This document shows, in pieces, positions 21,221-42,938 of a DNA stretch of 64,000 nt. Source of the stretch: an uncultured Actinomycetes bacterium (GTDB lineage: Bacteria > Actinomycetota > Thermoleophilia > UBA2241); assembly GCA_963755025.1 (NCBI GenBank), contig CAVWIH010000037.1, positions 1 through 64,000 of the forward strand, in the 5' to 3' direction. Under the pieces are notes generated by a model. That model searched no databases. It was not told where the DNA came from and saw nothing but the letters and a program-made list of their open reading frames with translations. Numbering within the stretch: position 1 is the stretch's first letter; every line of letters starts with the position of its first letter. The translations under genes and the position numbers were made by a program.

Positions 21221-21246
21221 TCGCTCGATCCTCTCGTCGATGGGGT
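21156..21246. repeat. ~39-bp duplication spanning the aspA stop/hydF start junction
   Basis: GTCGATGGGGCGAGGGCGTCGATCATTCGCT occurs twice plus a partial copy, giving [10 protein letters not shown] x2. Confidence 0.85.
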
Positions 21247-22648: not shown

Positions 22649-22682
22649 GGCCGTCTCGGCCGCTGTCGCGCGAGCGTCGGCG

Positions 22683-24497: not shown

Positions 24498-24643
24498 CGG
24501 TCGGCCCTGGTCGGTCGGGAAAGGCCGGGCGTGACGCGGCCGGCGCTTGCGCCGGTCACCCGTGTTCTACGCCCCTAGCCTAGCACTGCGCCGACGGTGA
24601 CGGGTGGGTCTGCAGGGCGCGGGGGGCACGTACGTGCGCACCG

Positions 24644-24690
24644 AAAAAGAACAGGGGCCGGGGCGCCGGCAGGCGCCCCGGCCCCTGTTC
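24644..24690 (-). terminator. Rho-independent terminator after hydrogenase 1
   Basis: GAACAGGGGCCGGGGCGCC / GGCGCCCCGGCCCCTGTTC stem followed by TTTTT on the minus strand. Confidence 0.85.
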
Positions 24691-24698
24691 GGGTCAGG

Positions 24699-26624
24699 TC
24701 AATCCATGAACTTGCCGCGCGCCGTGTAGGTGGTGTGCAGCAGCTTGTGGCTCTTGTGGCCGCAGGGGCCGTCGGTGAGGAACTCGGCGTAGGTCTGCAA
24801 CACGGCCGGGTTCTCGTGTGACTTGCGCACGGCGTACGACGAGTCTTCGGAGTAGATCACCCGGGCGCGGGCGGCGCGGATGGCGTCGCTCGTGGGGATC
24901 GGCTGACCGCCGCCGCCCAGGCAGCCGCCCGGGCAGGCCATGAACTCGATGAAGTGGCACTCGCTGAACTTGCCGCCGGCCTTGATGTCGTCCATGACCT
25001 TCTTGGCGTTGGCGGTGCCGTGAGCGACCGCGACCTTGACCGTGGCGCCGTTCAGCCAGTCCCAGTTGGGCACGAGGTGCGCGACGATCTCGGGCACGGG
25101 GCCGACCTTGGGGATGGTGATCTCGGCGTACTTCACGCCTTCGAAGCCGCGCAGCGGGATGATGTCGCCGTGGTCGTAGATGCTCTCGACCTTCTCGCCG
25201 GTGACCATCTCGATGACGGTGCGCAGGGCGGCCTCCATGACGCCGCCCGTGGCGCCGAAGATGACGCCCGAGCCGGTGGCCGAGCCGAAGGGGTCGTCGA
25301 AGTCGGACTTCGGCAGGTGCGGCACGTCGAGCCCGGCTTCTTTGAACATCTTGGCGAGCTCGCGCGTGGTGAGCCCGTAGTCGACGTCCTGGTAGCCGGA
25401 GTCGTGCATCTCGGGGCGGTTGCACTCGAACTTCTTGGCCGAGCACGGCATGAGCGCGACGCTCACGATGTTGGCCGGGTCGAGGGCCAGCTTTTCGGCG
25501 TAGTACGTTTTGATGAGCGCGCCGAACATCTGCTGCGGGCTCTTGGCCGACGAGGCGTTGGGCAGGTACTCGGGGTAGAAGTGCTCGAGGAACTTGACCC
25601 AGCCCGGCGAGCAGCTCGTGAACTGCGGCAGGGCGATCGTCTCGTCTTTTTCGACGAGCGCCTTGTAGAGACGCAGGATGAGCTCGGTGCCTTCTTCGAT
25701 GATGGTGAGGTCGGCCGTGAAGTTGGTGTCGAACACCTTGTCGAAGCCGGCCCGCCGCAGGGCGGTGTTCATCTCGAAGGTCACGCCGGTGCCCGCCTCG
25801 AGGCCGAAGCACTCGCCCATGGCGGAGCGCGGCGCCGGCGCCGTCTGAATGACGACGTGCTTGGTGGGATCGTCGATGGCCGCCCACACGGCGTCGGTCT
25901 CGTCTTTGGCGTAGAGCGCGCCGGTGGGGCAGCGGTTGATGCACTGCCCGCAGTTGATGCAGACCACCGAGCCGAGCGGACGGTCGGCGAACGTGGTGAT
26001 CTCGGTCTGGTCGCTGCGGCTCACGGCTTCGAGCACGCCGACCTCCTGCAGGTCGATGCAGGTGCGCACGCAACGGCGGCAGCGGATGCACTTGTTCATG
26101 TCGCGCACGACCGAGTAGCTCGAGGAGTCGACCTCGGCCACCGGCGCCTCGGGGTGCCCGAAGGTGAAGTCGGTGATGCCGTACTCCTCGGCCAGGGCCT
26201 GGAGCTCGCAGTTGCCGTTGCGCTGGCACGAGTAGCACTCGCCGTAGTGCTCGCTGAGCAGCAGCTCGAGCACGTTACGGCGCGCCAGGCGCACGCGGCG
26301 GCTGTGGGTGTCGATCGTCATCTGGTTGGTGACGGGGAAGACGCAGGCCGGCTGCAGCAGGCGCTGGCCTTCGACTTCGACCACGCAGATGCGGCAGATG
26401 CCGGCGACGTCGAGGTCGGGGTGGTGACAGAGCGTGGGGATGTGGACGCCGATGCTCTCGGCGGCCTGCAGGATGGTGGAACCGAACGGTACCTTGGCCT
26501 CGACGCCGTCGATCTTGACGGTGACGGTGGCGCCGATGGCGTCGGGGCTCGTGGTCGTGACCACACGCCGCGTCTGCTGCGACAGCGGAGCGCGGTGAAG
26601 GCGGGTCGTCACTGAGTCAGACAT
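24699..26624 (-). CDS. hydA: Group A [FeFe]-hydrogenase catalytic subunit (system 1)
   Basis: N-terminal [2Fe-2S], His-ligated [4Fe-4S] (EHYGECYSC) and 2x[4Fe-4S]; H-cluster motifs FTSCSPGW, MPCSAKKFE and EFMACPGGCLGGGGQP; GAGGAG RBS. Confidence 0.96.
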   Translation of the reverse strand: MSDSVTTRLHRAPLSQQTRRVVTTTSPDAIGATVTVKIDGVEAKVPFGSTILQAAESIGVHIPTLCHHPDLDVAGICRICVVEVEGQRLLQPACVFPVTNQMTIDTHSRRVRLARRNVLELLLSEHYGECYSCQRNGNCELQALAEEYGITDFTFGHPEAPVAEVDSSSYSVVRDMNKCIRCRRCVRTCIDLQEVGVLEAVSRSDQTEITTFADRPLGSVVCINCGQCINRCPTGALYAKDETDAVWAAIDDPTKHVVIQTAPAPRSAMGECFGLEAGTGVTFEMNTALRRAGFDKVFDTNFTADLTIIEEGTELILRLYKALVEKDETIALPQFTSCSPGWVKFLEHFYPEYLPNASSAKSPQQMFGALIKTYYAEKLALDPANIVSVALMPCSAKKFECNRPEMHDSGYQDVDYGLTTRELAKMFKEAGLDVPHLPKSDFDDPFGSATGSGVIFGATGGVMEAALRTVIEMVTGEKVESIYDHGDIIPLRGFEGVKYAEITIPKVGPVPEIVAHLVPNWDWLNGATVKVAVAHGTANAKKVMDDIKAGGKFSECHFIEFMACPGGCLGGGGQPIPTSDAIRAARARVIYSEDSSYAVRKSHENPAVLQTYAEFLTDGPCGHKSHKLLHTTYTARGKFMD

Positions 26625-26636
26625 GCTCACTCCTCG

Positions 26637-28322
26637 CTACGCGCGCTGCGGACGGTTGGTGACGTCGTCGGCAAAGGCCCCGACGATCGACAGGAATGCG
26701 CTCGGGCTGGTCTGCCCGAGGCCACACTTGGCGGCGACCTGCATGGTCGCCCCCAGGGCCTTGAGGTCGGCCAGGTGGGCGGCCGAGCACTCGCCGTTCT
26801 TGAGCAGCTCGACGCCTTCGAGGAGCTGGTGGTTGCCCAAGCGGCACGGCGTGCACTGGCCGCACGACTCTTCGACGAAGAACTCGAGGAAGTTCTCGGC
26901 GACGTCGAGCAGGTCGCGCTGCGGGCCGATCACCATGACCGATCCGCCGGTGGGGATGTCTTCGAAGGCCAGCCGGCGCTCGAAGTCGTTGGCCGGCACG
27001 CAGACGCCCGAAGCGCCGCCGATCTGGACGGCCTTGGCGCCCGTGCCGCCGACCTCTTTGAGCAGGTCGGCCACCGTGATGCCCCAGGGGAACTCGTACA
27101 CGCCGGGCTTTTCGCAGTCGCCCGAGATGCTGAAGAGCTTGTAGCCCGTCGACTTGTCGGTGCCGAAGCCCTTGAACCACTCGGTGCCCTTGGCGAAGAT
27201 GCAGGCCACCGAGGCCAGCGTCTCGACGTTGTTGACCACCGTGGGGTGGTTGAGGAAGCCGGCGACGGCCGGGAACGGCGGCCGGTTGCGGGGCTCGCCG
27301 CGGAACCCTTCGAGCGACTCGATCAGGGCGGTCTCTTCGCCGCAGACGTAGGCGCCGGCGCCGCGCGCCAGCACGATGTCGAAGTCGAAGCCCTCGACGC
27401 CGCCGATGTTGGCGCCGAGCAGGCCGGCTTGCCGGCGCTTGTGGATGACGTCGTTCAGGTGGGCGCGCAGGTAGGCGTATTCGGCGCGCAGGTAGACGAT
27501 GCCCATGTTGGCGCCGATGGCGCGGCCGCCGATGGTCATGCCCTCGAAGACGAGGTCGGGGAAGTCGCGCAGGATGACGCGGTCTTTGAAGGTGCCGGGC
27601 TCGCCTTCGTCGGCGTTGCAGATGATGTACTTCTGGTCGCTCTTTTCAGCGGCGCAGAAGTTCCATTTCATGCCGGTCGGGAAGCCGGCGCCGCCGCGGC
27701 CCTTGAGGGCCGCCCCGGAGAGCGTGTCGACGATGTCGCCGCGGCGCATGGTGAGCGCGGTCTTCATGCCGGCGTTGGGCTCGATCGTGGCGTAGGTCAG
27801 CTGGTTGCGGCTGGTGACGATGTCCTGGCGCTCTTCGTCGGCCGCCTTGGTGCGGTAGTCGGCGACGATCTCGGCGACCTTCTCGGGCGTGACGCGCGTG
27901 AAGACACGGTCGTTGACGAGCAGGGCCGGGCCCTGGTCGCACATGCCGACGCAGCTCGCCCACTCGAGGGTGAAGACGCCGTCGTCGGTGGTGGCGCCGA
28001 AGTCGATGCCGAGCGCCACGCGCAGGGCCTCGGCGACGGCCGTCTTGCCGGCGAAGTCGCACGACAGCGTGCCGCAGAGCCGCACGACAAAGCGCCCCTC
28101 GGGCGCGCCGTGCAGGAAGGCGTAAAAGGTGGCCACGCTGAAGACTTCGACCGGGTGCACGCCGACCAGGTCGGCGACGATCTGCATGGCTTCGTCGGTG
28201 ATCTCGTGCTGGGCCGTCTTGACGTCTTGCAGGATGGGGATGAGCGAGGTGCGCTCACCGCCGTGACGTTCGACAATGGCGACGATCTCGTCGCGCGCCG
28301 GAGAGTCGGTGATGGTCAGCAT
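26637..28322 (-). CDS. NAD(H)-dependent diaphorase subunit, NuoE-NuoF fusion (HoxF-like), partner of hydrogenase 1
   Basis: NuoE-like N-terminus (CGTLSC...CVGMC) fused to NuoF ([42 protein letters not shown]...CGLG); no C-terminal dicluster domain. Confidence 0.93.
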   Translation of the reverse strand: MLTITDSPARDEIVAIVERHGGERTSLIPILQDVKTAQHEITDEAMQIVADLVGVHPVEVFSVATFYAFLHGAPEGRFVVRLCGTLSCDFAGKTAVAEALRVALGIDFGATTDDGVFTLEWASCVGMCDQGPALLVNDRVFTRVTPEKVAEIVADYRTKAADEERQDIVTSRNQLTYATIEPNAGMKTALTMRRGDIVDTLSGAALKGRGGAGFPTGMKWNFCAAEKSDQKYIICNADEGEPGTFKDRVILRDFPDLVFEGMTIGGRAIGANMGIVYLRAEYAYLRAHLNDVIHKRRQAGLLGANIGGVEGFDFDIVLARGAGAYVCGEETALIESLEGFRGEPRNRPPFPAVAGFLNHPTVVNNVETLASVACIFAKGTEWFKGFGTDKSTGYKLFSISGDCEKPGVYEFPWGITVADLLKEVGGTGAKAVQIGGASGVCVPANDFERRLAFEDIPTGGSVMVIGPQRDLLDVAENFLEFFVEESCGQCTPCRLGNHQLLEGVELLKNGECSAAHLADLKALGATMQVAAKCGLGQTSPSAFLSIVGAFADDVTNRPQRA

Positions 28323-28332
28323 CGCGCGCCCC

Positions 28333-28704
28333 CTAAAGGCCCAGTAGCTCGTTGACCTGGGCGACCAGCGTGGCCGGCTCGACCGGCTTGGACTGGAACT
28401 TCTCGACCGGCACGATCTCGTCGTCGCGGTCGATGGTGAGGCCCATGGCGGCATTGACGGAGGTGAGCATGATGATCGGCTGGGCGAAGCCCTGGCGGCG
28501 CAGCTCGCGCGCCATGATGAGCCCGTCGTCGGGCTCTTCCATCATGACGTCGAGGATGAGCAGATCGGGCTTGACGTCGGCGACCTGCTGCAGGCCTTCG
28601 ACACGGTTCGAGGCGCATTTGACCTGGAACCCCTCTTTTTCCAGGACGAGTTTGCAGGCCTCCTGGATGTCGGGGTCGTCGTCGACGATCAGGATCTTGG
28701 ACAC
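28333..28704 (-). CDS. Single-domain response regulator
   Basis: GTG after AAGGAG; ILIVDDD, LILDVMM, IIMLTS and KP; no output domain. Confidence 0.92.
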   Translation of the reverse strand: MSKILIVDDDPDIQEACKLVLEKEGFQVKCASNRVEGLQQVADVKPDLLILDVMMEEPDDGLIMARELRRQGFAQPIIMLTSVNAAMGLTIDRDDEIVPVEKFQSKPVEPATLVAQVNELLGL

Positions 28705-28823
28705 CTTGCACTCCTTCAGCTCGATTGCCAGCGTCGTCACGGTGTTTCGCGCGGCCCCGTCGGGTGCGTGCGAACGTGGGCCGAGCCCCAGTGGCGCACT
28801 GTGCGCCGGGGGCAGGAGTCGCT

Positions 28824-28841
28824 TTGCAGATTCTTTCACAC
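28824..28841 (-). promoter_or_regulatory. Possible degenerate Rex box upstream of the RR-diaphorase-hydA1 unit
   Basis: Minus strand GTGTGAA-AGAA-TCTGCAA versus consensus TTGTGAA-N4-TTCACAA (4 mismatches). Confidence 0.3.
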
Positions 28842-29018
28842 GACGAGCCCAACGGCCAGAGTAAAACGACGCTCTGGAGCAGGGGAAACAGCGTGCGCGC
28901 GGGGCATCGCTGTGGCGGGCCGCGGGATCGCGGGGCGGCTGGGGCCGAAAAGGGCGCTCAAGCCCGTCGACTGCGCGCCGCACCGTTCGGGACCGCCGCC
29001 CGCGGGGGGCTGGCGGCT

Positions 29019-30185
29019 TCAGCTCGCCGAAGCCGTCTCGGGGGCCGCCGTCTCGGCCGGCACCTCGGCGTCGTGCAGGGTGACGGTGAAGGTGCTGCCC
29101 TCGCCGGCGACCGACGTTACAGAGGCGTCGCCACCGTAGAGGTTGGCGAGCTTCTTGACGGTCGACAGGCCGAGGCCACTGCCCAGGATGTTCACGGTGT
29201 GCTCGTTCTTGATGCGCGTGAACTCGTTGAAGAGCTTGGCCGCCTCGCCGGCGGTGAGGCCGATGCCGGTGTCGGCCACGGTCAGGGTGACGGTGTCGTC
29301 GGCGCGCCGCAGCGCGACGTCGACGCGGCCGCCGTCGCGGTTGTACTTGACCGCGTTCGAGACGAGGTTGTTGAGCACGATCTCGATCTCACCGGAGTCG
29401 GCGCGCAGCGACAGGTCGGCCGGGCAGTCGACGGCGATCGTAATGCCGCGCTCGGCGGCCTCGCCCTGGAACAGGTCGATCGAGGTCGCCACCAGCTCGC
29501 CCAGGGCGACGTCGGTGAACACGCGCTGCTTCTGGCCCGACTCGATGCGCGTAAGGTCGAGCAGGTCGAAGATGAGCTTCTTCATGCCGTCGAGGCGCAG
29601 CAGCGAGCGCTCGATCATGCGGCGGTCGTCGGCGGGCACGTCGTCGCGCAGGATATTGAGGTAGCCCTGCACGGCGTTCAGCGGCGACTTGAGCTCGTGG
29701 GCCAGCACCGAGATGAAGTTGAAGCGGATCTGGCGGCGTTCCTCGGCGAGCTGGCGGGCCTGGCGGCTGAGGATGAGCTGGGTCGAGGCCTTGCGCAGGC
29801 CGTAGCGCAGCTCGTCGGGCGAGAACGGCTTGGGCAGAAAGTCGTAGGCGCCGAGCTTGGTCGCCTTGACCGCCGTCTCGAAGGTGGCGTAGGCGGTGAT
29901 GAACAGCGTGAGCGCCTCGTGGCCCTGGTCGCTGACCTCCTGCAGCACGTCGAGGCCGTCGATGCCGGGGAGCTTGAGGTCGAGCAGCAGCAGGTCGAGG
30001 TCGGCGCCCGCGGCCAGGGCCGCGAGAAAGTCCTCGCCCGACTGAAAGTGGGAGAACTCGTAGCGCACGTCGATCTGCACGTCGGGCAGGTGGAACGTGT
30101 AGCGGTTGACGATGCGCTGTACGCCCAGGCACAGCGCCTCTTCGTCGTCGACCATGACGACTTTGAGGGTCTGGCTCTCGCTCAC
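29019..30185 (-). CDS. Hybrid response regulator-histidine kinase (REC-HisKA-HATPase)
   Basis: VMVDDE, LLLDLKLP, ITAY, KPF, then AHELKSPL, NLVSNAVKY, DTGIG and GSGLGL. Confidence 0.93.
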   Translation of the reverse strand: MSESQTLKVVMVDDEEALCLGVQRIVNRYTFHLPDVQIDVRYEFSHFQSGEDFLAALAAGADLDLLLLDLKLPGIDGLDVLQEVSDQGHEALTLFITAYATFETAVKATKLGAYDFLPKPFSPDELRYGLRKASTQLILSRQARQLAEERRQIRFNFISVLAHELKSPLNAVQGYLNILRDDVPADDRRMIERSLLRLDGMKKLIFDLLDLTRIESGQKQRVFTDVALGELVATSIDLFQGEAAERGITIAVDCPADLSLRADSGEIEIVLNNLVSNAVKYNRDGGRVDVALRRADDTVTLTVADTGIGLTAGEAAKLFNEFTRIKNEHTVNILGSGLGLSTVKKLANLYGGDASVTSVAGEGSTFTVTLHDAEVPAETAAPETASAS

Positions 30186-30222
30186 GACCGTCCTTTCGCC
30201 TTGCCCCGGCTGCGCGCCAAGT

Positions 30223-32229
30223 CTACAGCTCGTGCCGCGGCAGCGTGACGACGAAGGTCGTCTCGGTGGGTCCGGCGGCTGGGTCGGCGTTCGATTCGAC
30301 CTTGATCTGGCCGCGGTGCATCTTGACGATGCCGTGGGTGACCGCCAGGCCAAGGCCGGTGCCCTTGCCCACCTGCTTGGTGGTGAAGAAGGGGTCGAAG
30401 AGCTTGTCCATGTTGGCGCGGGGAATGCCCACGCCGGTGTCGGTGACCATGAAGGTGACCTCGTCGGCCGTGTCGCTCAGGCGGATGATGAGGGCGCCGC
30501 CCTCGGGCATGGCCTGCTGGGCGTTCGAGACGAGGTTGGTCAGCACCTGGACCATCTGGTCGGCGTCAAGCTCGGCGACCGGGTCGTCCATGGTGCTCTC
30601 GACGCGCACCATGATGTTCTCGTCGAGCGGCATGGTGCGCAGCGTGTCGTTCACGAGCTCGACCAGGTTGGTGGGCTGGCGCACGACGCGGCTCTGACGG
30701 GCGAAGTTGAGCAGCCCGGAGATGATCTTCTTGCAGCGGTTGGCCTGGTCGACGATGAGCTTCAAGTCGTCGGCCATCTCGGCGTTCTGGTCGATCTCTT
30801 CGAGCAGTATGTTGGCCTGCAGCAGGAGGATGCCGAGCGGGTTGTTGACCTCGTGGGCGATGCCGGCGGCGAGCTGCCCCATGCTGGCGAGCTTCTCGGA
30901 CTTGACCAGAGCCTCTTTGGTCGACTCGAGCGAGCGGTGCGAGTCTTCGAGGTCGCCGACGGTGGTCGAGAGCTTCTCGATCACGAACGGCAGGCACATG
31001 GTCTCTTCGGCGATGCCCTGGTAGACGGCCACGGCGTGGCGCCGGCAGGTGCCGTAGCCGCAGGCGCCGCAGTTGAGCTCGTCTTCGGGAGTGGTCTTGT
31101 TCATGCGCCGCAGGATGGCGGTGATGTCGGCCTCGGTGGGCTCGACCAGGAAGCGCTCGTCTTGCGGGGTGAAGGTGCGCGACAGGTCGATGCCGGCGAA
31201 GGCTTGCATGTTGGCCTCCCAGGCGGCCTGGTCGAAGCCCTCGCTCAAGTGCTTGGCGTGGCGGCTGATCTGGGCGCGACGCCGGTAGAGCGGTTCGTCG
31301 TTGCTGAAGCCCACCCCGGCGATGCAGCCCTCGCAGGCGAGGATGTCGAGCAGGCGGACTTCGGATTCGCCGTGCTCGAAGTCGTTGATGGCCTCGACGA
31401 AGTGCTCCATGCCGTCGGCGGCGATGATCTCGCCGGTCATGAGGTCTTCGGGCAGATTCGCGGCCTGCAGCAGGCCGCGCGCCAGCGGGAACAGCGAACC
31501 CTGCGAGCCGTGCGGCGGGTCGAACGAGTCGCCGGCGCCGGGCTTGGGGACGATGTGGCGCTCGGCGAACATCTGGCGCAGCTCGGCGAAGGTGAGCACG
31601 GCGTCGATCTCAAAGAGGATGTCGGCGCTCGCCGCCTCGCCTTTCTTGGCGATGCAGGGGCCGATGAACACGACCTTGGCGTCGGGGCCGTGCACCGACG
31701 GGTCGTGCAGCACGCGCGACATGGCGATCATCGGCGAGGCGATGGGCGCCAGCGACGACGTGAGGTCGGGGTGGTACTTGCGCACAAACGAGACCACGGC
31801 CGGGCAGGGCGTGGCGATGTAGCGCGCGTCGCTGTTGTCCTCGAGGAGCTTCGCGAAGGCGCGCGCCACGAGGTCGGCGCCGAAGGCCACTTCGTGCACG
31901 GCGGCAAAGCCGAGCTCGCGGGTCATGGCGACCAGCTGGGCTTCGTCTAAGTCGGTGAACTCGGCCGGGAAGCTCGGCGCGATGATGGCCATGACCGAGC
32001 GGCTCGAGTCGAGCAGGTCGAACGTGCGGTCGACCTCGCCGTAGGCCTGCTTGGCGTTCTGCGAGCAGACCCGAAAGCAGTTGGCGCAGCCGATGCAGCG
32101 CGAAGGAATGACGCTGGCGCGCCCGTCGACCACGCGGATGGCTTCGGCGGGGCACTCGCGCACGCACGCATAACAGCGCCGGCAGCGCTCCTTGATGGTG
32201 GTGACGAGTCCGTCTTCGCCGATCAGCAT
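30223..32229 (-). CDS. Sensory (group C-like) [FeFe]-hydrogenase fused to a histidine kinase
   Basis: 2x[4Fe-4S]; variant H-cluster motifs ATPCPAVV, IGPCIAKKGE and LACEGCIAG; NCGACGYGTC...MCLP FeS domain; then SEKLASMG...AHEVNNPL, DTGVG and FDPFFTTK...GTGLGL. Confidence 0.9.
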   Translation of the reverse strand: MLIGEDGLVTTIKERCRRCYACVRECPAEAIRVVDGRASVIPSRCIGCANCFRVCSQNAKQAYGEVDRTFDLLDSSRSVMAIIAPSFPAEFTDLDEAQLVAMTRELGFAAVHEVAFGADLVARAFAKLLEDNSDARYIATPCPAVVSFVRKYHPDLTSSLAPIASPMIAMSRVLHDPSVHGPDAKVVFIGPCIAKKGEAASADILFEIDAVLTFAELRQMFAERHIVPKPGAGDSFDPPHGSQGSLFPLARGLLQAANLPEDLMTGEIIAADGMEHFVEAINDFEHGESEVRLLDILACEGCIAGVGFSNDEPLYRRRAQISRHAKHLSEGFDQAAWEANMQAFAGIDLSRTFTPQDERFLVEPTEADITAILRRMNKTTPEDELNCGACGYGTCRRHAVAVYQGIAEETMCLPFVIEKLSTTVGDLEDSHRSLESTKEALVKSEKLASMGQLAAGIAHEVNNPLGILLLQANILLEEIDQNAEMADDLKLIVDQANRCKKIISGLLNFARQSRVVRQPTNLVELVNDTLRTMPLDENIMVRVESTMDDPVAELDADQMVQVLTNLVSNAQQAMPEGGALIIRLSDTADEVTFMVTDTGVGIPRANMDKLFDPFFTTKQVGKGTGLGLAVTHGIVKMHRGQIKVESNADPAAGPTETTFVVTLPRHEL

Positions 32230-32630
32230 GGCGGCTCTCCAAGCAGCTCGCGGACCTTGGCGACCAGGGCCGTGGCATCGAGGGGTTTGTCGAAGTAGGC
32301 GTCGACCTTCATAGAGGCGAGGTCGGCCGCCGAGTGCGGCGTGAAGTCGAGGCCCAGCGCGGTGGTGACCGACGTCGACATGATGATCGGCACGGCCGTG
32401 GTGCGGGGGTCGTCGCGCAGCCGCTTCGACAGCGAAAAGCCGGAGTCGACCTCGCTCATCATGAGGTCGGTGATGACCAGGTCGGGCGTCTCGGCCTCGA
32501 CCTTGTCCATGGCCTGCGAGGGGCTGCCGGCGGTGACCACGCGAAAGCCTGCCCTCTCGAGGATGCGGCGGTTGATCTCGAGGAAGTCGTAGTCGTCGTC
32601 GACGATCAGGATGAGTCGCTCGTCTGCCAT
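32223..32630 (-). CDS. Single-domain response regulator
   Basis: ILIVDDD, VITDLMM, IIMSTS and DKP; stop overlaps the start of the sensory hydrogenase. Confidence 0.92.
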   Translation of the reverse strand: MADERLILIVDDDYDFLEINRRILERAGFRVVTAGSPSQAMDKVEAETPDLVITDLMMSEVDSGFSLSKRLRDDPRTTAVPIIMSTSVTTALGLDFTPHSAADLASMKVDAYFDKPLDATALVAKVRELLGEPPC

Positions 32631-32655
32631 GAATCGTCTCCCGCGGTGTGGGCTC

Positions 32656-32692
32656 GGCGGGCGGCGGCGACTGTAAGTCGCCGCCGCCCGCC
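32656..32692 (-). terminator. Hairpin between hydA2 and the phosphorelay genes
   Basis: GGCGGGCGGCGGCGACT-GTA-AGTCGCCGCCGCCCGCC perfect stem with no U tract. Confidence 0.6.
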
Positions 32693-32717
32693 AGCTTACC
32701 ACGCCGCTCGTTGTGCC

Positions 32718-34490
32718 CTAGACGCGGTCCTTGCCCGCGTAGTGCGTGTGCAGGAGGTGGTGAGCCTTCTCGCCACCGGCTTCGCCGAGCCACGTGCTGT
32801 AGAGCTCGAGGACGGCCGGGTTCTCGTGGCTCTTGCGCAGCTCACGGCCCTCGTCTTCGCGGTAGATGGCGGCGATGCGCGCCTCACGCACGGCGTTCGT
32901 GGTGAGCCGCGGCTGGCCGCCGCCGCCGATGCAGCCGCCGGGGCAGGTCATGACCTCGACGAAGTGGTACTCGGCCTCGCCGCTCTTGATGGCGTCGATG
33001 ACCTTCTGGGCGTTGCCCAGCGTGTGGGCCACGGCGACCTTCACCGTGACGCCTTCGAGGAACGACCACTCCGGCACGGCGCCTTCGATCAGCACTTCGG
33101 CGTGCTTGACGCCTTCGAGCCCTTCGATCGGGGCGACGTGCAGGTTCTCGAACGGGAACGGCCGGCCGGTCACGAGCTCGTAGACCGTGCGCAGCGCGGC
33201 TTCCATGACGCCGCCCGTGTTGGCGAAGATGTCGGCGGCGCCGGTCGACAGACCGAGCGGCTTGTCCATCTTCTCGTCGGGCAGGCTGTCGAAGTCGATG
33301 CCGCCCTGCTTGATCATGCGCACCAGTTCGCGCGTGGTCAGCACGACGTCGACGTCCTGCACGCCCGAGTCGTCCATCTCGGGACGCTGGCACTCGAACT
33401 TCTTGGCGGTGCAGGGCATGACGCTGGCCACGAAGATGTCCTCGGGCCGCTTGCCGAGCTTCTCGGCGTAGTAGGTCTTGGCCACCGCCCCGAACATCTG
33501 CTGCGGGCTCTTGCAGCTCGAGAGGTTGGGCAGGAAGTCGGGGTTGTAGTGCTCCATGTAGTTGATCCAGCCCGGCGAGCAGCTCGTGAACATCGGCAGG
33601 GCGACCTCTTGCTTGTCGACCAGCGCCGCCTTGAGGCGCATGAGCAGCTCGGTGCCTTCCTCGATGATGGTGAGGTCGGCGGCGAAGTTGGTGTCGAACA
33701 CGCCGTCGAAGCCCAGGCGGCGCAGGGCGGCGACCATCTTGCCGGTCACCACGGTGCCGGGCTCGTAGTCGAAGCCCTCGCCCAGGGCGGCGCGGATGGC
33801 CGGAGCCGTCTGCACCACGACGTACTTGTCGGGATCGTCGAGGGCCTGCCAGACCGTGTCGATCTGGTCGCGCTCGATGATGGCCCCGACCGGGCAGACC
33901 GCGGCGCACTGGCCGCACTGCACGCAGGTCACGTCGGAGAGGTCGGAAGCAAACGCCGGTCCGATCACCGTCGTGAAGCCGCGGCCCTGCGGGAACAGGG
34001 CGCCCACGCCCTGGGTCTCGTTGCACACCGTGACGCAGCGCCGGCACATGATGCACTTGCCGCTGTCGCGGATGAGCGCGGGCGTGGAGTCGTCGATGGT
34101 CTTGGTGGTCTTCTCGCCTTCGTAGCGGATCTGGTCGATGCCCAGATCGCGCGCCAGGGTGCGCAGTTCGCAGTCGGCGCTGCGGGCGCAGGTCTGGCAG
34201 TTGCCGTCGTGCTCGGAGAGGAGCAGCTCGACGACGGTCTGGCGGCCCTTGCGGGCGAGCGCCGAGTTGGTCTTGACGACCATGCCCTCGGCCACCGGAG
34301 CGGCGCACGAGGCCACGAGCGCCTTGGCGCCCTGGACTTCGACGAGGCAGACGCGGCAGGCGCCGATCGTCTGCACGTCTTCGAGGTAGCACAGGCTCGG
34401 CACCTTGGAGCCGACCTGACGGGCGGCCTGCAGGATGGTGGTGCCGTCCGGGACCTCGACCTTGATGTCGTCTACAGTGAGGGTTGGCAT
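32718..34490 (-). CDS. hndD: Group A [FeFe]-hydrogenase catalytic subunit, HndD-like (system 2)
   Basis: [2Fe-2S], EHDGNCQTC and 2x[4Fe-4S]; H-cluster motifs FTSCSPGW, MPCTAKKFE and EVMTCPGGCIGGGGQP. Confidence 0.95.
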   Translation of the reverse strand: MPTLTVDDIKVEVPDGTTILQAARQVGSKVPSLCYLEDVQTIGACRVCLVEVQGAKALVASCAAPVAEGMVVKTNSALARKGRQTVVELLLSEHDGNCQTCARSADCELRTLARDLGIDQIRYEGEKTTKTIDDSTPALIRDSGKCIMCRRCVTVCNETQGVGALFPQGRGFTTVIGPAFASDLSDVTCVQCGQCAAVCPVGAIIERDQIDTVWQALDDPDKYVVVQTAPAIRAALGEGFDYEPGTVVTGKMVAALRRLGFDGVFDTNFAADLTIIEEGTELLMRLKAALVDKQEVALPMFTSCSPGWINYMEHYNPDFLPNLSSCKSPQQMFGAVAKTYYAEKLGKRPEDIFVASVMPCTAKKFECQRPEMDDSGVQDVDVVLTTRELVRMIKQGGIDFDSLPDEKMDKPLGLSTGAADIFANTGGVMEAALRTVYELVTGRPFPFENLHVAPIEGLEGVKHAEVLIEGAVPEWSFLEGVTVKVAVAHTLGNAQKVIDAIKSGEAEYHFVEVMTCPGGCIGGGGQPRLTTNAVREARIAAIYREDEGRELRKSHENPAVLELYSTWLGEAGGEKAHHLLHTHYAGKDRV

Positions 34491-37400
34491 CAGCGGTTCA
34501 CCTCGGTCTTGGCACAGGTCTTTCCGTAGTCACAACGCAGGCAGCGCCGCGCTTCGGCGACGGCCGTCTCGGCCGCCCACGAGAGCTCGACTTCGTCGAA
34601 GCCGCCGACACGCGCGCTGGCGGCCAGCTCGGGCACGACGGCGCGCGGCGTCTCGACGGGGATCGGCGTCGGGGTCGAACGCGGTGTCGACCGCGACGTC
34701 GCGACGCCAGAAGGCATGGTTGGCGCCGGTGAGGAACGAATCGATGGAGACGGCGGCCTTCTCGCCGGCTCCGATGGCGGCCACGACCGAGGCCGGACCC
34801 GTGACGGCGTCGCCGCCGGCGAAGATCCACTCGACCGAGGTACGGCCGTCCTTGTCGGTCTTGAGCCAGCCCTTCCTGGTGGTCTCGACCGAGACGCCGT
34901 CGAACAGCGGCGCGCTGTCGAGCCACTGGCCGATGGCGGCGATGACCTGGTCGCACTCGACGACGAAGTCGGCGTTGCGGCCGGCGACCGGGCGGCGACG
35001 GCCGCTCGAGTCGTAGTCGCCCAGGGTCATCGGGCGGCACTTCACGCCGACCAGCTTGCCGGCGGCGTCGTGCACGATCTCGACCGGCGCGACGAGCGGC
35101 TGAAGCACGATGCGCTCGTCTTCGGCGGCGTCGATCTCTTCGGCCCACGCGGGCATCTGGGCGCGCGTGCGGCGGTAGAGGATGGTGACCTGGTCGGCGC
35201 CGAGGCGCAGGGCGGTGCGGGCCGCGTCGATGGCGGAGTTGCCGCCGCCGATGACCGCGACGCGCTTGCCGACCTCGACCGTGCCGTCGACGTTGTAGGT
35301 CTTGAGGAACGACAGCGCTTCGGTGACGCCCTCGCCGTCTTCGCCGGGCACGCCGATGTTGGAGCCCTGCGGGGCGCCGACGCCGAGGAACACGGCCTCG
35401 AAGCCGTCGTCGTGCAGGCCCTGGAGGGTGAAGTCGCGCCCGAGCGCCTTGTCGCACTCGAGGGCGACGCCCATCTCCTGGATCATCGAGATCTCGCGGC
35501 CGAGCTCTTCGCGCGGCAGCCGGTAGGCCGGGATGGCCTGCACGAGCATGCCGCCGGGGGTCGAGGCGGCCTCGAAGATGGTCGGCTTGTAGCCCAGGCG
35601 AGCCAGGAAGTAGGCGCACGACAGGCCGGCCGGACCGGAGCCGATCACGGCGACCTTGCGCTTGGCGTTCTCGTCGCTCACGAGGACCTCGGGCAGGGCG
35701 ACCACGGTCTCCTGCTCGGTCATGAAGCGCTTGACGCCACGGATGGCGACGGGCGCGTCGAAGCCGGCGCGCTGGCACTTGCTCTCGCAGGGGTGGAAGC
35801 ACACGCGGCCGCAGATCGAGGCCAGCGGGTTGCGCTCGCGATGCAGCACGAGGGCCTCGTCGAAGCGCTTCTCGCCGACCAGGCTCACGAAGCCCGGCAC
35901 GTCGACGTCGGCGGGGCAGGCGTTGGTGCAGCGCGCCTTGAACATGGTCGCGCAGACGCCGGCTTCGCAGTGCTTGTCGAGGATGTGGGCTTCCCACTCG
36001 TGACGGAAGTGGCGGATCATCGACAGCACCGGGTTGGGGGCCGTCTGGCCGAGGCCGCACAGCGCGGTCTCCTTGATCATGGCGCCGAGCTCCTGCAGAC
36101 GCTCGATGTCGCCCTCTTCGCCCTGGCCGTCGCAGATGCGGTCGACGATCTCGAGCATGCGCTTGGTGCCGACCCGGCAGGGCGGGCACTTGCCGCAGCT
36201 CTCTTCCTGGGTGAACTCGAGGAAGAAGCGCGCCATGTCGACCATGCACGAGTCCTCGTCCATGATGACGAGGCCGCCGGAGCCCATGATGGCGCCGAGC
36301 TCCTGGAGCGACTCGTAGTCGACCGGACGTGTCGAGGTGCTCAGTAGGGCACGCAGCCGCCGGAGGGACCGCCGATCTGCACGGCCTTGAGCGCCTTGCC
36401 GCCGGGCACGCCGCCGCCGATCTCGTTCATGATCTCGCCGAGCTGCATGCCGATCGGCACTTCGACCAGGCCGGTGTTGGTGATGTTGCCGCCCAGGGCG
36501 AAGACCTTGGTGCCCTTGCTCTTCTCGGTGCCCGTCGCGGCGAACCACTCGGCGCCCTTGAGGATGATGGGGTTGATGTTGGCGTAGGTCTCGACGTTGT
36601 TGAGCACGCTGGGCTTGCCCCAGAGGCCCTTGACCGCCGGGAACGGCGGGCGCGGGCGCGGCTCGCCGCGGTGACCTTCGATCGAGGTCATGAGCGCGGT
36701 CTCTTCGCCGCAGACGAAGGCGCCGGAGCCCATGCGGATCTCGAGGTCGAAGGCAAAGCCCGTGCCGAGGATGTCGTCGCCGAGGAGGCCGTAGTCGCGC
36801 GCCTGGTCGATGGCGTACTGCAGGCGCTCGACGGCCAGCGGGTACTCGGCGCGCACGTAGACGTAGCCCTGATGGGCGCCGATCGCGTAGGCGCCGATGG
36901 CCATGCCCTCGATCACCGAGTGCGGGTCGCCTTCGAGCACCGAGCGGTCCATGAACGCGCCCGGGTCGCCTTCGTCGGCGTTGCAGAGGATGTACTTGGT
37001 CTCCTCTTTCTGCTGCTGGGCGAAGCGCCACTTGAGGCCGGTCGGGAACCCGGCGCCGCCGCGGCCGCGCAGGCCCGAGGCGAGCACTTCGTCGACGATG
37101 CTCTCGGGGGTCATCTCGGTGATCGCCTTGGCGAGCGCGCCGTAGCCGTCGCGGGCGATGTAGTCCTCGATGCTCAGCGGGTCGATGAGGCCCGAGTTGC
37201 GCAGCACGATCTTGACCTGGCGGTTGAAGAACTCGACGTCGTGCATCTCGGCGATCGACTTCTCGGTGCCGGGCGCGGTGCTCACGAGGCGCGGTACGAC
37301 GCGGCCCTTGAGCAGGTGCTCTTCGACGATCTCAGCGACGTCGGGCACCTTGATGTTCTGGTAGAAGACGCCGTCGGGGTAGACGAGCGCGACCGGGCCC

Positions 37401-37561
37401 ACGGCGCACGGCCCCAGGCAACCGGTCTCGACGACCTGGACTTCGCTCGCCAGGCCGTGCTTTTCGAGCTCCTCGCTGAACGCGGCGCTGACGGCCAGCG
37501 CGCCCGAGGCGATGCAACCGCCGCCGGTGCAGACGAGGACGTGGCTTCTGAACTGCTCCAT
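34490..37561 (-). CDS. HndC/HydB-like flavin subunit fused to a GltD-like FAD/NADP(H) oxidoreductase (frameshifted near 36340 and 34670)
   Basis: Thioredoxin-like [2Fe-2S] N-terminus, [36 protein letters not shown] and [10 protein letters not shown]; then [43 protein letters not shown] and EARRCLRC. Stop overlaps the hndD ATG. Confidence 0.88.
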
Positions 37562-37574
37562 ATCCGCTTCCTTC

Positions 37575-37946
37575 CTACGACCGGATCAGCAGCGCGTCGA
37601 CCGGCTTGCCGCCGACGAGGTGCTCGGTGACGATCGTCTTGACCTTCGCGTCGTCGAGCAGCCCGTAACGGTAGGGCGTGTCGCTCGCGTCGCGGACGGT
37701 GATCATGGGCTCCTGCTCGCAGAGGCCGGCGCAGCCGGCCTGGCGCAGCGTGACGTCGTCGACGCCGGCCGCGGCCATCTCGCGCATGAAGGCGGCGATC
37801 ACGCCGCGCGCTCCGGCGGCGATGCCACAGGTGCCCATATGGACCGTCACCTGGATCTCCTTGGTCCCCTCACGCAGCTCGACCGAGGCCTTCGCCCTGT
37901 CGGCCATCGCCTTGAGGTCTGCGGCGCTCTTGATCTTCTCGGCCAT
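37575..37946 (-). CDS. hndB: HndB-like thioredoxin-type [2Fe-2S] subunit
   Basis: VHMGTCGIAAGA, GCAGLCEQEP and EHLVGGKPV motifs. Confidence 0.9.
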   Translation of the reverse strand: MAEKIKSAADLKAMADRAKASVELREGTKEIQVTVHMGTCGIAAGARGVIAAFMREMAAAGVDDVTLRQAGCAGLCEQEPMITVRDASDTPYRYGLLDDAKVKTIVTEHLVGGKPVDALLIRS

Positions 37947-37950
37947 GGCG

Positions 37951-38481
37951 TCAGGCACTCCTTTCGGCTGCGGCGGTCTCGGCGGCGTACTCTTCGAGGA
38001 TCGCGCCGATGCGCTTGGGCTTGACGCGGTGGTGCACGTCGTCGTCGATCATGATGACCGGCGCGAGTCCGCAGGCGCCGAAGCAGCGGCCGACCTCGAG
38101 CGAGAAGTTACGGTCGTCGGTGGTGCCGCCGACGTCGATGCCCAGATCTTTTTTGAGCGCGTCGAGCACGCCGACGCCGCCGCGCACGTAGCAGGCCGTC
38201 CCCAGGCAGACCCTGATGACGTGCTTGCCGCGGGGCACGGTCGAGAAGAACGAATAGAAGCCGACCACGCCGGCCACCTCGCTGTAGGGCTTGCCCAGTT
38301 TGAGGGCGACGTGCTTGAGGGCGACCTCGGGCAGGTAGCCGAAGATGCCCTGGGCCAGCTGGAGCACCGGGATAAGGGCGCCCGGCTTGTCCTTGTAGCC
38401 CGCGATCACGTCGTCGAGACGGGCGAGAAGCTCCTCCTCGCTTGCCTCCTCGCAACTGCACTGTTGCAAGACTTCAGTCAT
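37951..38481 (-). CDS. hndA: HndA/HydC/NuoE-like [2Fe-2S] subunit
   Basis: ATG after AAGGAG; LIPVLQLAQGIFGYLP, VCLGTACYVRG and RCFGACGLAP. Confidence 0.93.
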   Translation of the reverse strand: MTEVLQQCSCEEASEEELLARLDDVIAGYKDKPGALIPVLQLAQGIFGYLPEVALKHVALKLGKPYSEVAGVVGFYSFFSTVPRGKHVIRVCLGTACYVRGGVGVLDALKKDLGIDVGGTTDDRNFSLEVGRCFGACGLAPVIMIDDDVHHRVKPKRIGAILEEYAAETAAAERSA

Positions 38482-39143
38482 CCCACGCTCCTTTGCTGCT
38501 GTCGTAAGTCCACAGGATCCACCGTTTGAGTCGTAGCTGTCGGTGCTTTTGGGCCGGATGGTTCGTGCGTCGGGGGTTGGTTCGGGTCGGGTGTGCGACG
38601 CCCGTGGGTGACGGGCGTGGTGGTCGGCATGGCGGCGGGCTCGTCGGCGGTGGCCAGCAGGGCCGTGCAGCGCGCGGCGACCGCGCCGAAGGCGGCCAGC
38701 TCGGCGCCCTGCGCCAGGCAACTGTCGGCGCCGGCCTGGACGTCGAGCACGAGGGTCGCCTGGGGGTTGGTCGCGGCCATCACGGCCACCGACTCGCAGA
38801 CGTCGCCGAGCGGCGCGCGGTCGACGTGCGACAGGCTCATGACGACCTCGATCGCGACGCCGCCCAGGGTGGGCGAGCGCTGCAGGGTGAGGCTGCCGTC
38901 GGCCTCTTCGGCGGCCTCGCGGAACAGCGGCAGGCCGAGGCCCGTGCGCTTGCCGGCCTTGGTCGTGAAGAAGGGGTCGGTCGCCTGGTCGGCGCTCACG
39001 TCGAGGCCGGGGCCGTCGTCGTCGACCGAGATCGCCAGGCGGTCGTGCATGGGGTCGATGACGACCCGCACAGCGACGCGCTCGGCGCCGGCGCGCAGCG
39101 AGTTCTCGATCATCTCGAGCGTGTAGAGGGAGAGGTCATGCAT
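38478..39143 (-). CDS. Stand-alone HATPase_c (kinase-like ATP-binding) protein of hydrogenase loci
   Basis: MHDLSLYTLEMIENSLRAGA, DDGPG, DPFFTTK...GLGLP and HVDRAPLGD; no H-box. Confidence 0.85.
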   Translation of the reverse strand: MHDLSLYTLEMIENSLRAGAERVAVRVVIDPMHDRLAISVDDDGPGLDVSADQATDPFFTTKAGKRTGLGLPLFREAAEEADGSLTLQRSPTLGGVAIEVVMSLSHVDRAPLGDVCESVAVMAATNPQATLVLDVQAGADSCLAQGAELAAFGAVAARCTALLATADEPAAMPTTTPVTHGRRTPDPNQPPTHEPSGPKAPTATTQTVDPVDLRQQQRSVG

Positions 39144-39891
39144 TGACGACCGCCCTGCCTTGCGCCGTTCTGACGGCGAGGGCGACCTCGGCGAAGGTCG
39201 GCGCCTCGAGGGTGAGCGTGGTGGTCGCGCAGCCAACGTCGGCGAGGTAGTGGCTGTCGGAGGAGTGCATGATCGGCAGGCCGTAGTCGGCGCAGGCCGC
39301 CGCCGCCGGCGAGTCGGGCGGCGCGAAGCGCGACAGCTCGACGGCGTCGAAGCCGGCCTCGAACGGAAAGAAGCCGAGCTGGGCGATCACGCCGAAGGTG
39401 GGGCGGTCGATGTGGGCGGCCACGACCAGGCCGCCGAAGCGCTTGACGAGGGCGACCGCTTCGTCGAGCCGCAGCGAGGTCGCCAGGGCGAGCGCGTGGC
39501 CTTCGTGGCCGCACACCGTGCCGGCCGAGTCCATGAGGTACTGCTCGCCGAAGAAGCGCGTGTAGTCGTCGTCGGTGGGCGGCAGCGTGGCGCAGACCTC
39601 GCCGGCCGCGTTGGCCGCCGCGGCGGCGGTGGGGAAGAGGCCGAGGACGTGCACCTCTTCGACCGTGGTGATCTCGATGCCCGAGATGACCGCGAGGCGC
39701 GCGCCGGCGGCTTCGCCCACGGCCCGCGTGTTGCCGGCGGCGTTGTGGTCGCACACGGCGATCATGTCGAGGCCCGCCGCGAGGGCGGCGTCGACGATGG
39801 CCGGCGGCGACATCTCGTCGTCGCCGCAGGGCGACAGCGCGGTGTGCACGTGAAAGTCGGCGAGCAGGGTTTTCACGGCGTCAGGCGACAC
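39136..39891 (-). CDS. PHP-domain phosphoesterase
   Basis: DFHVHTALSPCG, CDHN, GIEITTVEEVH, AHIDR and SSDSH motifs. Confidence 0.9.
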   Translation of the reverse strand: MSPDAVKTLLADFHVHTALSPCGDDEMSPPAIVDAALAAGLDMIAVCDHNAAGNTRAVGEAAGARLAVISGIEITTVEEVHVLGLFPTAAAAANAAGEVCATLPPTDDDYTRFFGEQYLMDSAGTVCGHEGHALALATSLRLDEAVALVKRFGGLVVAAHIDRPTFGVIAQLGFFPFEAGFDAVELSRFAPPDSPAAAACADYGLPIMHSSDSHYLADVGCATTTLTLEAPTFAEVALAVRTAQGRAVVNA

Positions 39892-40237: not shown

Positions 40238-40243
40238 TTCTGT

Positions 40244-41794: not shown

Positions 41795-41802
41795 GGCGGC
41801 GT

Positions 41803-42873: not shown

Positions 42874-42938
42874 GATCCTCCTCTGACTGACGGGCTGGCC
42901 GGACAGCGGGTGGTGGTGCGTGGTTACGTTACGTAACG

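Follow-up and report, generated by a model that had tools for sequence, protein, structure and literature searches.

Two separable [FeFe]-hydrogenase modules, and a possible receiver contact with the NADH-only enzyme, in one gene array of an uncultured Thermoleophilia bacterium

Does a putative H2-sensing phosphorelay that is encoded between two different [FeFe] hydrogenases choose between them? The question is raised by a window of 64,000 nucleotides, the whole stretch of DNA analysed here (contig CAVWIH010000037.1, our C37, of assembly GCA_963755025.1), from a metagenome-assembled genome (MAG) of 3.37 Mb in 39 contigs that is 84% complete. The G+C content of the window is 64–74%, near-identical proteins and loci bear names from uncultured Thermoleophilia and Actinomycetota, and the public runs that contain this stretch are soil, peat, bog, wetland, rhizosphere and freshwater metagenomes. 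An initial annotation recognised two NAD-linked enzymes, system 1 and system 2, on either side of a sensory hydrogenase–kinase, HydS::HK. It proposed that HydS::HK senses H2 and that the associated receivers switch transcription between a confurcating enzyme at high H2 (system 2) and an NADH-only enzyme at low H2, in syntrophic life (system 1).

The gene coordinates and motif strings of that annotation were reproduced, and every gene of the array lies on the minus strand, from position 42956 down to 23028. Read in the direction of transcription, a Rex-type operator is followed by rex, the gene for a sensory-type hydrogenase fused to a HATPase_c_2 domain, genes for a PHP-domain protein and a small HATPase, and hndA, hndB, hndC::gltD and hydA2, which make up system 2; then come REC1, hydS::HK and REC::HK. 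A spacer of 314 nt leads to REC2, nuoE-nuoF and hydA1, a hairpin and the gene for a GAF histidine kinase. We propose that two modules, each also found without the other, together form a hydrogenase island here, an explanation which, with its control steps included, we consider somewhat better than an even prospect. Module A (42956 to 29019) would comprise the Rex operator and rex, a four-subunit Bfu/HydABC-type [FeFe] hydrogenase, the putative H2 sensor HydS::HK, REC1 and REC::HK. Module B (28863 to 23028) would comprise its own upstream control region, REC2, NuoE-NuoF, HydA1 and the GAF histidine kinase.

The distribution of the genes carries this proposal. With HydS::HK as the query, 34 loci were found, of which 22 (L020-L041, every full-length match included) were annotated. 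Eight Actinomycetota loci among them hold the whole array; in one MAG the array extends over two contigs (L035, L036), and the 5.3-kb contig L020 holds its middle part. Ten further loci belong to other phyla and carry the labels Planctomycetes, Sedimentisphaerales, Thermoanaerobaculaceae, Acidobacteria, Lentisphaerales and Bacteroidetes; there, HydS::HK, a receiver and REC::HK lie directly 3' of HndA-HndC-HydA. Rex is near this relay–HydABC operon in seven of the 10, and no system 1 was found within the fetched flanks, which reach 4.5–10 kb downstream. The relay is thus a conserved 3' accessory of HydABC-type operons, and this comparison gives no support to the claim that it acts as a switch between the two enzymes.

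A similar separation is seen among 41 related genomes (G000 included), which are kin and not independent samples, so that the counts given here describe a pattern and are not a test. An orthologue of HydS::HK is present in 13 of the 41, every one of which has the system 1 beta subunit and the fused HndC as well. The full array is conserved to this extent, and its parts occur separately as well. Five further relatives have the system 1 beta subunit only and two the fused HndC only; contigs were fetched for these seven and for G027. In four of the five (G014, G015, G018 and G019) REC2-NuoE-NuoF-HydA1 is found without HydS::HK, the GAF kinase following in the first three and the G019 contig stopping inside hydA1. 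The fifth, G037 (locus L057, G037:C8:103000-120000), has NuoE-NuoF-HydA1 without REC2 or the kinase; some 5 kb off, this locus holds a second set of NuoE, NuoF (TYK, Y) and a truncated HydA-like protein. In G020, Rex-HATPase-HndA-HndC::GltD-HydA2 occurs but the relay does not. The array is complete in G027, where module B is inverted, as the REC2-NuoEF-HydA1 unit also is in L029 and L037.

REC2 orthologues (at least 59% identity) adjoin the system 1 beta gene in 17 of the 18 genomes that have it, and none was found in the 23 genomes that do not. G014 carries an additional REC2-like gene (59% identity) away from its system 1 locus, at G014:C4:147383-147742. Because the relay stands behind HydABC-type operons elsewhere, and REC2 and the GAF kinase accompany system 1 on its own, we assign the relay to the HydABC-type operon and regard system 1 as a module apart, REC2-NuoE/F-HydA1(-GAF kinase), which comes with a receiver and a kinase of its own.

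These patterns bear directly on the transcriptional switch. The relay does lie between the two systems in the window and, where the contigs show it, in the 13 relatives that possess it, and the upstream region of system 1 is conserved (see below). Physiology offers a motive, since the non-bifurcating HydAB of Syntrophus aciditrophicus reaches just 2.2–40.2 Pa H2 (PMC7311640, in the sections drawn on here), so that H2 should influence which enzyme is used. There is also a precedent in Ruminococcus albus 7, where the HydA2 transcript, co-transcribed with HydS, is down 90-fold in co-culture with an H2 consumer (PMC10838669, likewise in part). Nevertheless, the same relay stands behind HydABC alone in the 10 loci of other phyla, and REC2 and the GAF kinase stay with system 1 in the four genomes where the relay was not found. 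Moreover, no DNA-binding domain was found in the array products except in Rex, and system 2 has no canonical ferredoxin-docking domain, as described below. We consider the switch improbable.

A second alternative is that the adjacency has no regulatory meaning. The site would be the place where this lineage keeps its [FeFe] hydrogenase and maturase genes, Rex and HydS serving one module and the GAF kinase and REC2 the other. The genome, 84% complete, has four H-domain matches, all of them inside the window, hydF and an aspartase-like gene come next, each module occurs alone among the relatives (B in G014, G015, G018 and G019; A in G020), and the module B unit can be inverted. Such a view sits poorly with the presence of module B in all 13 relatives that have HydS::HK, where it adjoins wherever the contigs show. 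It also sits poorly with the paralogy of REC1 and REC2 (43% identity), because of which cross-talk between the two sets is possible. We hold this reading, too, to be unlikely, and return to that of two modules, each with control genes of its own.

The two modules encode enzymes of different kinds. In system 1, the NuoE-NuoF fusion (26637–28322), identified by its Pfam domains and structure matches as the HydB of a dimeric HydAB with a sub-type II-like beta subunit, consists of 2Fe-2S_thioredx, Complex1_51K, SLBB and NADH_4Fe-4S domains, with nothing past residue 556 of 561. The Fe-S domains found by Pfam are the NuoE-type [2Fe-2S] and NADH_4Fe-4S only, in agreement with the initial statement that system 1 lacks extra FeS domains. 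Its motifs are DEGEPGTFKDR, GAGAYVCGEE and GGASG.

The motif rule from which the initial annotation had argued is in print (Losey 2020, PMC7311640, section 17). In the sections of that paper used here, the states proposed for bifurcating beta subunits are Ala/Glu and Met at positions 232/234 of TmHydB, Phe 367 and GGPSG, and those for non-bifurcating ones Thr/Ser and Lys/Ser/Ala at 232/234, Tyr 367 and no GGPSG. NuoEF shows every sequence feature of the non-bifurcating set: T/K, Y, no GGPSG and fewer Fe-S domains. At the positions that could be read, system-1-like orthologues have T..K in 10/10, Y in 9/9 and GGASG in 8/8 rows, and in separately fetched genomes the residue states were those expected in 6/6 system-1-like and 3/3 system-2-like cases. 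The closest solved structure, matching over both the NuoE-like and the NuoF parts, is the non-bifurcating HoxF (5xf9_A, 2.3e-110), with residue states TFK / Y / SGPSG. The partner HydA1 (24699–26630) is a catalytic [FeFe] hydrogenase subunit of M3 type. Its closest solved match (2.1e-174) is 7q4v_A, the HydA of a bifurcating HydABC, which is also the top match of HydA2; the H-cluster motifs are intact in both. Domain make-up and residue states suggest that system 1 is a two-subunit hydrogenase that works with NADH only, like HydAB of Syntrophus aciditrophicus.

System 2 starts with HndA/HydC (37951–38481), a NuoE-like [2Fe-2S] protein (2Fe-2S_thioredx, 3.6e-47), and HndB/BfuD (37575–37958), a small thioredoxin-like [2Fe-2S] protein. 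The latter is recognised by the same family at 8.6e-05 (22.9 bits against a curated cut-off of 24.8), and its gene is retained in relatives. It ends with HydA2 (32718–34490), a second catalytic subunit of M3 type (7q4v_A, 1.3e-187) with the motifs TSCSPGW, MPCTAKK and CPGGC. Between them lies hndC::gltD (34490–37561), which encodes a flavoprotein of the kind termed sub-type I BfuB. This protein consists of an N-terminal [2Fe-2S] domain, the FMN/NADH and SLBB domains, an N3 cluster, Fer4_20 and an FAD/NAD(P)H module (Pyr_redox_2). Residues 5–81 are a 2Fe-2S_thioredx (B5) domain, so that, with HndA as BfuC, this part of the Bfu core is present. The residue states A-x-M / F / GGPSG are those that the Bfu core requires, and are shared by the solved bifurcating beta chains of NfnB (9n5u_B), NiFe-HydB (7t2r_B) and HydB (7q4v_B), all AFM / F / GGPSG. 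Among system-2-like orthologues, A..M is found in 13/14 rows (L031 has AFT), F in 15/15 and GGPSG in 13/13. Aligned to solved beta chains, the two flavoproteins of the window thus show the same residue split, and the opposite residue sets noted initially are real.

The label 'confurcating' attached to system 2, and its description as HndA-B-C-D-like, fare less well, although the genes and motifs are there: HndC carries Fer4_20 and Pyr_redox_2 in place of a ferredoxin-like domain, and its frame is broken (see below). The motif CxxCxxCxxxC occurs twice in 7/7 unfused HndC proteins of other phyla and not at all in 6/6 full-length fused orthologues. It is likewise absent from HndC::GltD of the window, which lacks the B3/B4 part of the Bfu core. 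The closest solved matches of the GltD-like module, 9bov_A (1.3e-104), 9n5u_A, 4ylf_B and 8oh5_C, are NADPH-binding modules of Nfn-Bfu/Stn enzymes and NfnB. The fusion is present in 120/120 of the 90%-identity clusters among the matches listed, down to 68% identity. Elsewhere in G013, G001, G005, G018, G019, G023 and G027 there are paralogous NuoF::GltD fusions (47–52% identity, frames of 1063–1242 codons), so the lineage uses the fusion in more than one complex. The intact orthologue at L007:1339-4407 closes with a tail of about 60 residues that bears a Cys pair, and stand-alone GltD/NfnB proteins open with a similar Cys pair. The first cluster site of the GltD module may be completed from the C-terminus of HndC::GltD.

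How should such an enzyme be named? The Bfu family is defined by a conserved set of cofactors in BfuBC (Schut 2022), and no characterised bifurcating [FeFe] hydrogenase is without the B3/B4 ferredoxin-like domain, which is considered essential (Furlan 2022). A survey of sub-types (PMC11406978, mSystems 2024) describes, in the portions cited here as in those of the two preceding papers, a 'sub-type I BfuB' in which B3/B4 is replaced by DPD_II (Fer4_20) and an FAD/NAD(P)-binding domain. It speculates that this form has a second, FAD-based bifurcation site. A 'sub-type II' without B3, B4 and B5 is described there as non-bifurcating, nearly all strains that have it also harbouring another sub-type. 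By its domains, system 2 is a sub-type I BfuABCD, and 'confurcating HydABC' is not a safe label because the ferredoxin-like B3/B4 domain is replaced by the NfnB/GltD-like module. No biochemical test of a sub-type I enzyme was found in the literature searched.

The hndC::gltD gene is broken in the window. Its HndC frame stops at a TGA six codons past GGPSG, and the remainder lies in two other frames. Against four congeneric genomes, the gene has precisely three one-base insertions in the window, at 36341, 36327 and 34657, all absent from 4/4 congeners, whose open frames have 1030–1036 codons (the L007 gene encodes 1022 residues). Public contigs covering 34657 (DNA runs X1 and X2) and those covering 36327 and 36341 (DNA run X1; RNA runs X15 and X16) are all without the extra bases; one 827-letter piece of X1 differs from the window in one letter and that one gap. 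Several other MAG loci of the group (L037, L041) are full of frame breaks, and a second gene of the window is split. Taken with the congeners and the covering contigs, this leads us to conclude that the three breaks are very probably assembly errors. The clustering of the insertions speaks the other way. All three fall within one 3-kb gene, with no further uncompensated indel in the 10.7 kb shared with G004, that is, none in the other 7.7 kb. This is odd for random error, and a strain-private broken allele may be involved, the public runs being metagenomes. Programmed recoding was considered for the HndC break and rejected: the congeners read TGG-CAC where the window reads TG-A-GCAC, and two further single extra bases follow.

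That system 2 is a pseudogene in this strain, with real insertions of which the first makes the TGA and with the NADH-only enzyme alone at work, is very improbable given that the two upstream insertions are missing from contigs of one DNA and two RNA runs and the third from two DNA runs, that the insertions sum to +3 and restore the frame, and that frame breaks recur in L037, L041 and the second window gene.

What, then, do the relay and the receivers do? REC1 (32223–32630), a stand-alone receiver, overlaps the start of hydS::HK by 7 nt with its end. HydS::HK itself (30223–32229) lies between the two systems as initially stated and has two [4Fe-4S] sites, an H-domain, a Cx2Cx4Cx16C motif, HisKA and HATPase_c. 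The hybrid REC::HK (29019–30188, the start being approximate) consists of a receiver, HisKA and HATPase_c. REC2 (28333–28704), a stand-alone receiver with an unusual insert after beta-4, ends 10 nt 5' of nuoEF. Response_reg is recognised in REC1, REC2 and REC::HK at 4e-18 to 3.9e-19, and the phosphorylation residues of REC2 (DDD...D52...T81...K106-P107) are invariant in 14/14 sequences, an alignment with 50 invariant columns. In none of the three was a DNA-binding output domain found by Pfam, REC1 and REC2 consisting of the receiver domain only, so that a transcriptional switch would have no visible output.

The H-domain of HydS::HK reads TPC-PAV (no Cys299), GPCIAKK (Gly in place of Met353) and ACEGC. 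In its H-cluster loops the Cys residues of L1 and L2 are present, and the first Cys of L3 (ACEGC) stands one place later than in CPGGC or CCNGC. The ACEGC form is found in this lineage and close relatives, and CCNGC or CCEGC in Planctomycetes, Acidobacteria and some Bacteroidetes. Pfam finds no PAS domain in HydS::HK, where HisKA, with its H-box, follows the FeS motif after some 35 residues. The C-terminal Cx2Cx4Cx16C occurs in 19 of 24 HydS-like open reading frame (ORF) rows, four of the five misses being partial ORFs. A structure search with HydS::HK ranked no solved sensory hydrogenase above catalytic HydA.

Upstream of system 2 a second sensory-type hydrogenase-like protein is encoded (40244–41794; the GTG start at 41794 is our own reading), with HATPase_c_2, two [4Fe-4S] sites, an H-domain and Cx2Cx4Cx16C. 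Its motifs are SPACPS (no Cys299), VSCPGQR in L2 (Ser at the Met353 place) and VCDGGC in L3; its HATPase_c_2 domain is N-terminal and RsbW-like. With HydS::HK, this makes two distinct candidate H2 sensors in the array. Class C1 of HydDB, 'histidine kinase-linked', is marked there as putative, PMC11406978 files kinase-fused BfuT under C3, and no signalling output of a sensory [FeFe] hydrogenase was shown in the literature searched.

Each module has an upstream region of its own. Just 5' of rex lies a candidate Rex operator, TTGTGAACTGATTCACAG (42939–42956, no strand assigned), which overlaps a promoter-like site, TTGACA-17-TACGCT. It differs by one mismatch from TTGTGAA-N4-TTCACAA, which we take to be the Rex consensus, and is the sole match in the window at up to three mismatches; at least one match was obtained with 24 of 100 shuffles. 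No Rex box was found 5' of system 1 at up to three mismatches. The 314-nt spacer there (28705–29018, minus strand) contains a block conserved in relatives, with TACTCT at 28863–28858 and TGTGAAAGAATCTGCAA at 28830–28814, and may serve as a promoter or operator. Across the relatives' system 1 spacers, the block TTGTGAAA...ATCCGCA is weaker than the Rex box; a sigma-54 promoter, considered for it, did not match by eye. The inverted REC2-NuoEF-HydA1 loci (L029:17493-17900, L037:17432-17900) retain TAGACT and ATCCGCA in the spacer, like the other loci. The gene 5' of REC2 in these inverted units has the C-terminal end ...PGETLPRIC, which resembles that of HypE, a protein of [NiFe] maturation.

The initial annotation gave system 1 an upstream gap and a terminator. 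The gap precedes REC2 and not nuoEF, but system 1 does form a unit of its own, with a terminator-like hairpin 3' of hydA1 (24649–24690, minus strand; a 19-bp stem with 16 GC pairs, then a T run). Seven terminator-like sites were found in the scan against 8.3 expected in shuffles, and this hairpin has the longest stem by far. A sigma-70 consensus scan of 23800–43500 found 0 sites, which carries little weight at 68–70% G+C. RNA-library contigs of run X15 map to both systems, Logan contigs being unable to rank expression. One 378-nt piece of X15, with one other letter, crosses the REC2–nuoEF junction, a weak hint of one transcript.

Since no receiver of the array has a visible output domain, the partner of REC2 is of particular interest. 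One complex was predicted, REC2 with NuoEF, alongside three controls and with our own shallow alignments (14 and 40 rows). The model reached ipSAE values of 0.71/0.69/0.69, and the best of the three controls 0.00. The ipSAE mark applied is passed by 58/80 solved complexes and 2/110 mismatched pairs, and is roughly valid with our own alignments. Contact agreement was at least 98%, with partner pLDDT of at least 90. On the NuoEF side the predicted interface comprises residues 193–202, 215–227 and 348–353, flanking the invariant GRGGAGFP loop (208–215) of the FMN/NADH domain. On the REC2 side it comprises residues 57–70 and 87–98, on both sides of the phospho-acceptor D52 and with the insert included. 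The most confident contact places, R195, N221 and A224-E226, are conserved in the REC2-linked beta subunits and differ in the orthologue of G037 (L057), which has no REC2, and in all bifurcating-type beta subunits.

We regard binding of REC2 to NuoEF as possible, if somewhat short of an even chance, on the strength of this model, which speaks for binding but is no demonstration of it. The position of the modelled contact beside the NADH/FMN loop, together with the conservation of the interface, leads us to propose that REC2 acts as a gate for NADH at the NADH-only enzyme, a step less likely again than binding itself. Put fully, and tentatively, stand-alone REC2 would dock its phosphorylation face on the NADH/FMN entry of NuoF, its phosphorylation state would open or block the way for NADH, and the output of the signal would be the enzyme itself. 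REC1 may act likewise on the flavoprotein of the neighbouring sub-type I enzyme. We know of no solved receiver–NuoF complex, and nothing relevant on a receiver acting on a hydrogenase or NuoF was found in the literature searched.

In the overall explanation, then, module A would respond to the NADH/NAD+ ratio by way of Rex and to H2 by way of HydS::HK. Control of module B would be post-translational: REC2 would dock by the NADH/FMN loop of NuoEF, and the access of NADH would depend on whether REC2 is phosphorylated, a state governed by the GAF kinase and perhaps also by the neighbouring relay. Several points weigh against this explanation. The evidence is computational throughout. The complex score is a measure of model confidence, and 7/44 blind-picked neighbours also pass. 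The residue patterns at the interface are not independent, coming from related sequences and one REC2-less genome. Binding of an H-cluster by HydS::HK is not certain, because the first Cys of its third motif is shifted (ACEGC, against CPGGC in catalytic HydA). Finally, the spacer is no more than a putative promoter.

The remaining genes of the array and its surroundings are as follows. The rex gene (41803–42873) encodes a protein with Put_DNA-bind_N (3.3e-14), CoA_binding (1.6e-12) and a C-terminal DRTGG-like extension (0.0028, under the curated cut-off). Its upstream neighbour is an aminotransferase gene. The PHP-domain protein (39136–39891) has PHP (3.8e-07) and PHP_C (1.4e-06), and the small histidine-kinase-like ATPase (38478–39143, its start read as M32 of the ORF) has HATPase_c (1e-11). 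The GAF-histidine kinase gene (23028–24497) is recognised by its domains and travels with system 1. Just 3' of the array lies the gene for the maturase HydF (19832–21379, minus strand; HydF_tetramer 1.3e-42, HydF_dimer 1.2e-38). An aspartate ammonia-lyase/fumarase-like gene (21217–22843, minus strand) is split into two frames near 22205, one ORF covering positions 4–116 of the Lyase_1 profile and the next 137–256 and FumaraseC_C. Its orthologue in G010 is a single frame of 525 codons, and the split is probably another one-base assembly error. No transcription factor besides Rex was found among the array products or the adjoining ORFs (the GAF kinase, the split aspartase-like gene, HydF and the aminotransferase). 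Elsewhere in the genome there are four POR_N matches, one of them in a frame of 1217 codons; neither a [NiFe] large subunit nor RnfD was found, weak absences at 84% completeness. They would leave system 2 as the one way to make H2 from reduced ferredoxin that can be seen in this genome, an argument weakened by the same incompleteness.

How does the array compare with known systems, as the portions of the papers cited here describe them? Compared by criteria with S. aciditrophicus HydAB, Hyd1ABC and sub-type II, system 1 likewise consists of HydA and a flavoprotein that has only the NuoE-type [2Fe-2S] and N3 clusters. It shares with the non-bifurcating HydAB kind the absence of the N-terminal B5 and C-terminal B3/B4 domains, the T..K and Y states and the lack of GGPSG. 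NuoE and NuoF are fused in system 1, and from the cluster count in PMC7311640 we infer that the S. aciditrophicus dimer is fused alike. The difference is in the flanks, system 1 being accompanied by the stand-alone receiver REC2 and the GAF kinase; the term 'response regulator' is absent from the main text of PMC11406978, its supplements lying outside this check. HoxF of the NAD+-reducing soluble [NiFe] hydrogenase (5xf9) shares TFK and Y with NuoEF but partners a [NiFe] module.

System 2 has in common with the group A3 sub-type I BfuABCD of PMC11406978 the DPD_II and FAD/NAD(P) replacement and the BfuD/HndB gene. It differs in being headed by Rex, the HATPase-fused sensory-type hydrogenase, PHP and the small ATPase and in being followed by HydS::HK, REC1 and REC::HK. 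Like Nfn-Bfu/StnABC (8oh5, 9bov, 9n5u; PMC11829005), it wires an NfnB/GltD-like FAD module into a Bfu core, whereas system 2 carries that module on BfuB, where B3/B4 would otherwise be, and has a true HydA.

HydS::HK and its paralogue share with group C/D sensory hydrogenases (PMC8163306) the two [4Fe-4S] sites, the lack of Cys299, a replaced Met353 and Cx2Cx4Cx16C. At the Met353 place HydS::HK has Gly, as TmHydS does, and the upstream paralogue Ser, as in TamHydS. The group C/D enzymes and HydS::HK are both encoded beside a group A3 enzyme. In contrast to PAS-bearing (M2f / group C) sensory enzymes, HydS::HK has no PAS domain, its cluster motif running nearly straight into HisKA. R. albus 7, with HydABC and HydA2-HydS, resembles the present case in having two H2-producing hydrogenases and a sensory one, and the expression of one of its enzymes responds to the removal of H2. 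Its alternative enzyme, however, is ferredoxin-only and its HydS has a PAS domain and no kinase, whereas the alternative enzyme here is NADH-only, with a receiver of its own.

From the survey in PMC11406978 it follows that the two kinds of enzyme were already known, as was their occurrence together in a single genome. A conserved array in which sub-type I stands together with a kinase-fused sensor and sub-type II was not found in the literature searched (supplements of PMC11406978 and PMC7311640 excepted), nor, within the same bounds, was a receiver and GAF-kinase pair that travels with an NADH-only enzyme. The receiver–flavoprotein contact predicted here was not found in the literature searched.

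The array bears on two matters: what governs an anaerobe's choice of an NADH-only or a bifurcating-type hydrogenase, and which processes sensory [FeFe] hydrogenases control. In one conserved array, a lineage of peat, bog, wetland and soil unites both enzyme types, two sensor-type hydrogenases and three receivers without output domains, and the sub-type I enzyme beside system 1 is of a widespread type. If REC2 does gate NuoEF, a reversible NADH:H2 enzyme could be shut within seconds upon a change in H2 or redox state. If REC1 acts likewise, this would account for the sets of HydS::HK, REC and REC::HK without a DNA-binding partner in at least six phyla. Gating by REC2 would thereby add post-translational control by a receiver to hydrogenase biology, with relevance to H2 thresholds in methane-producing soils.

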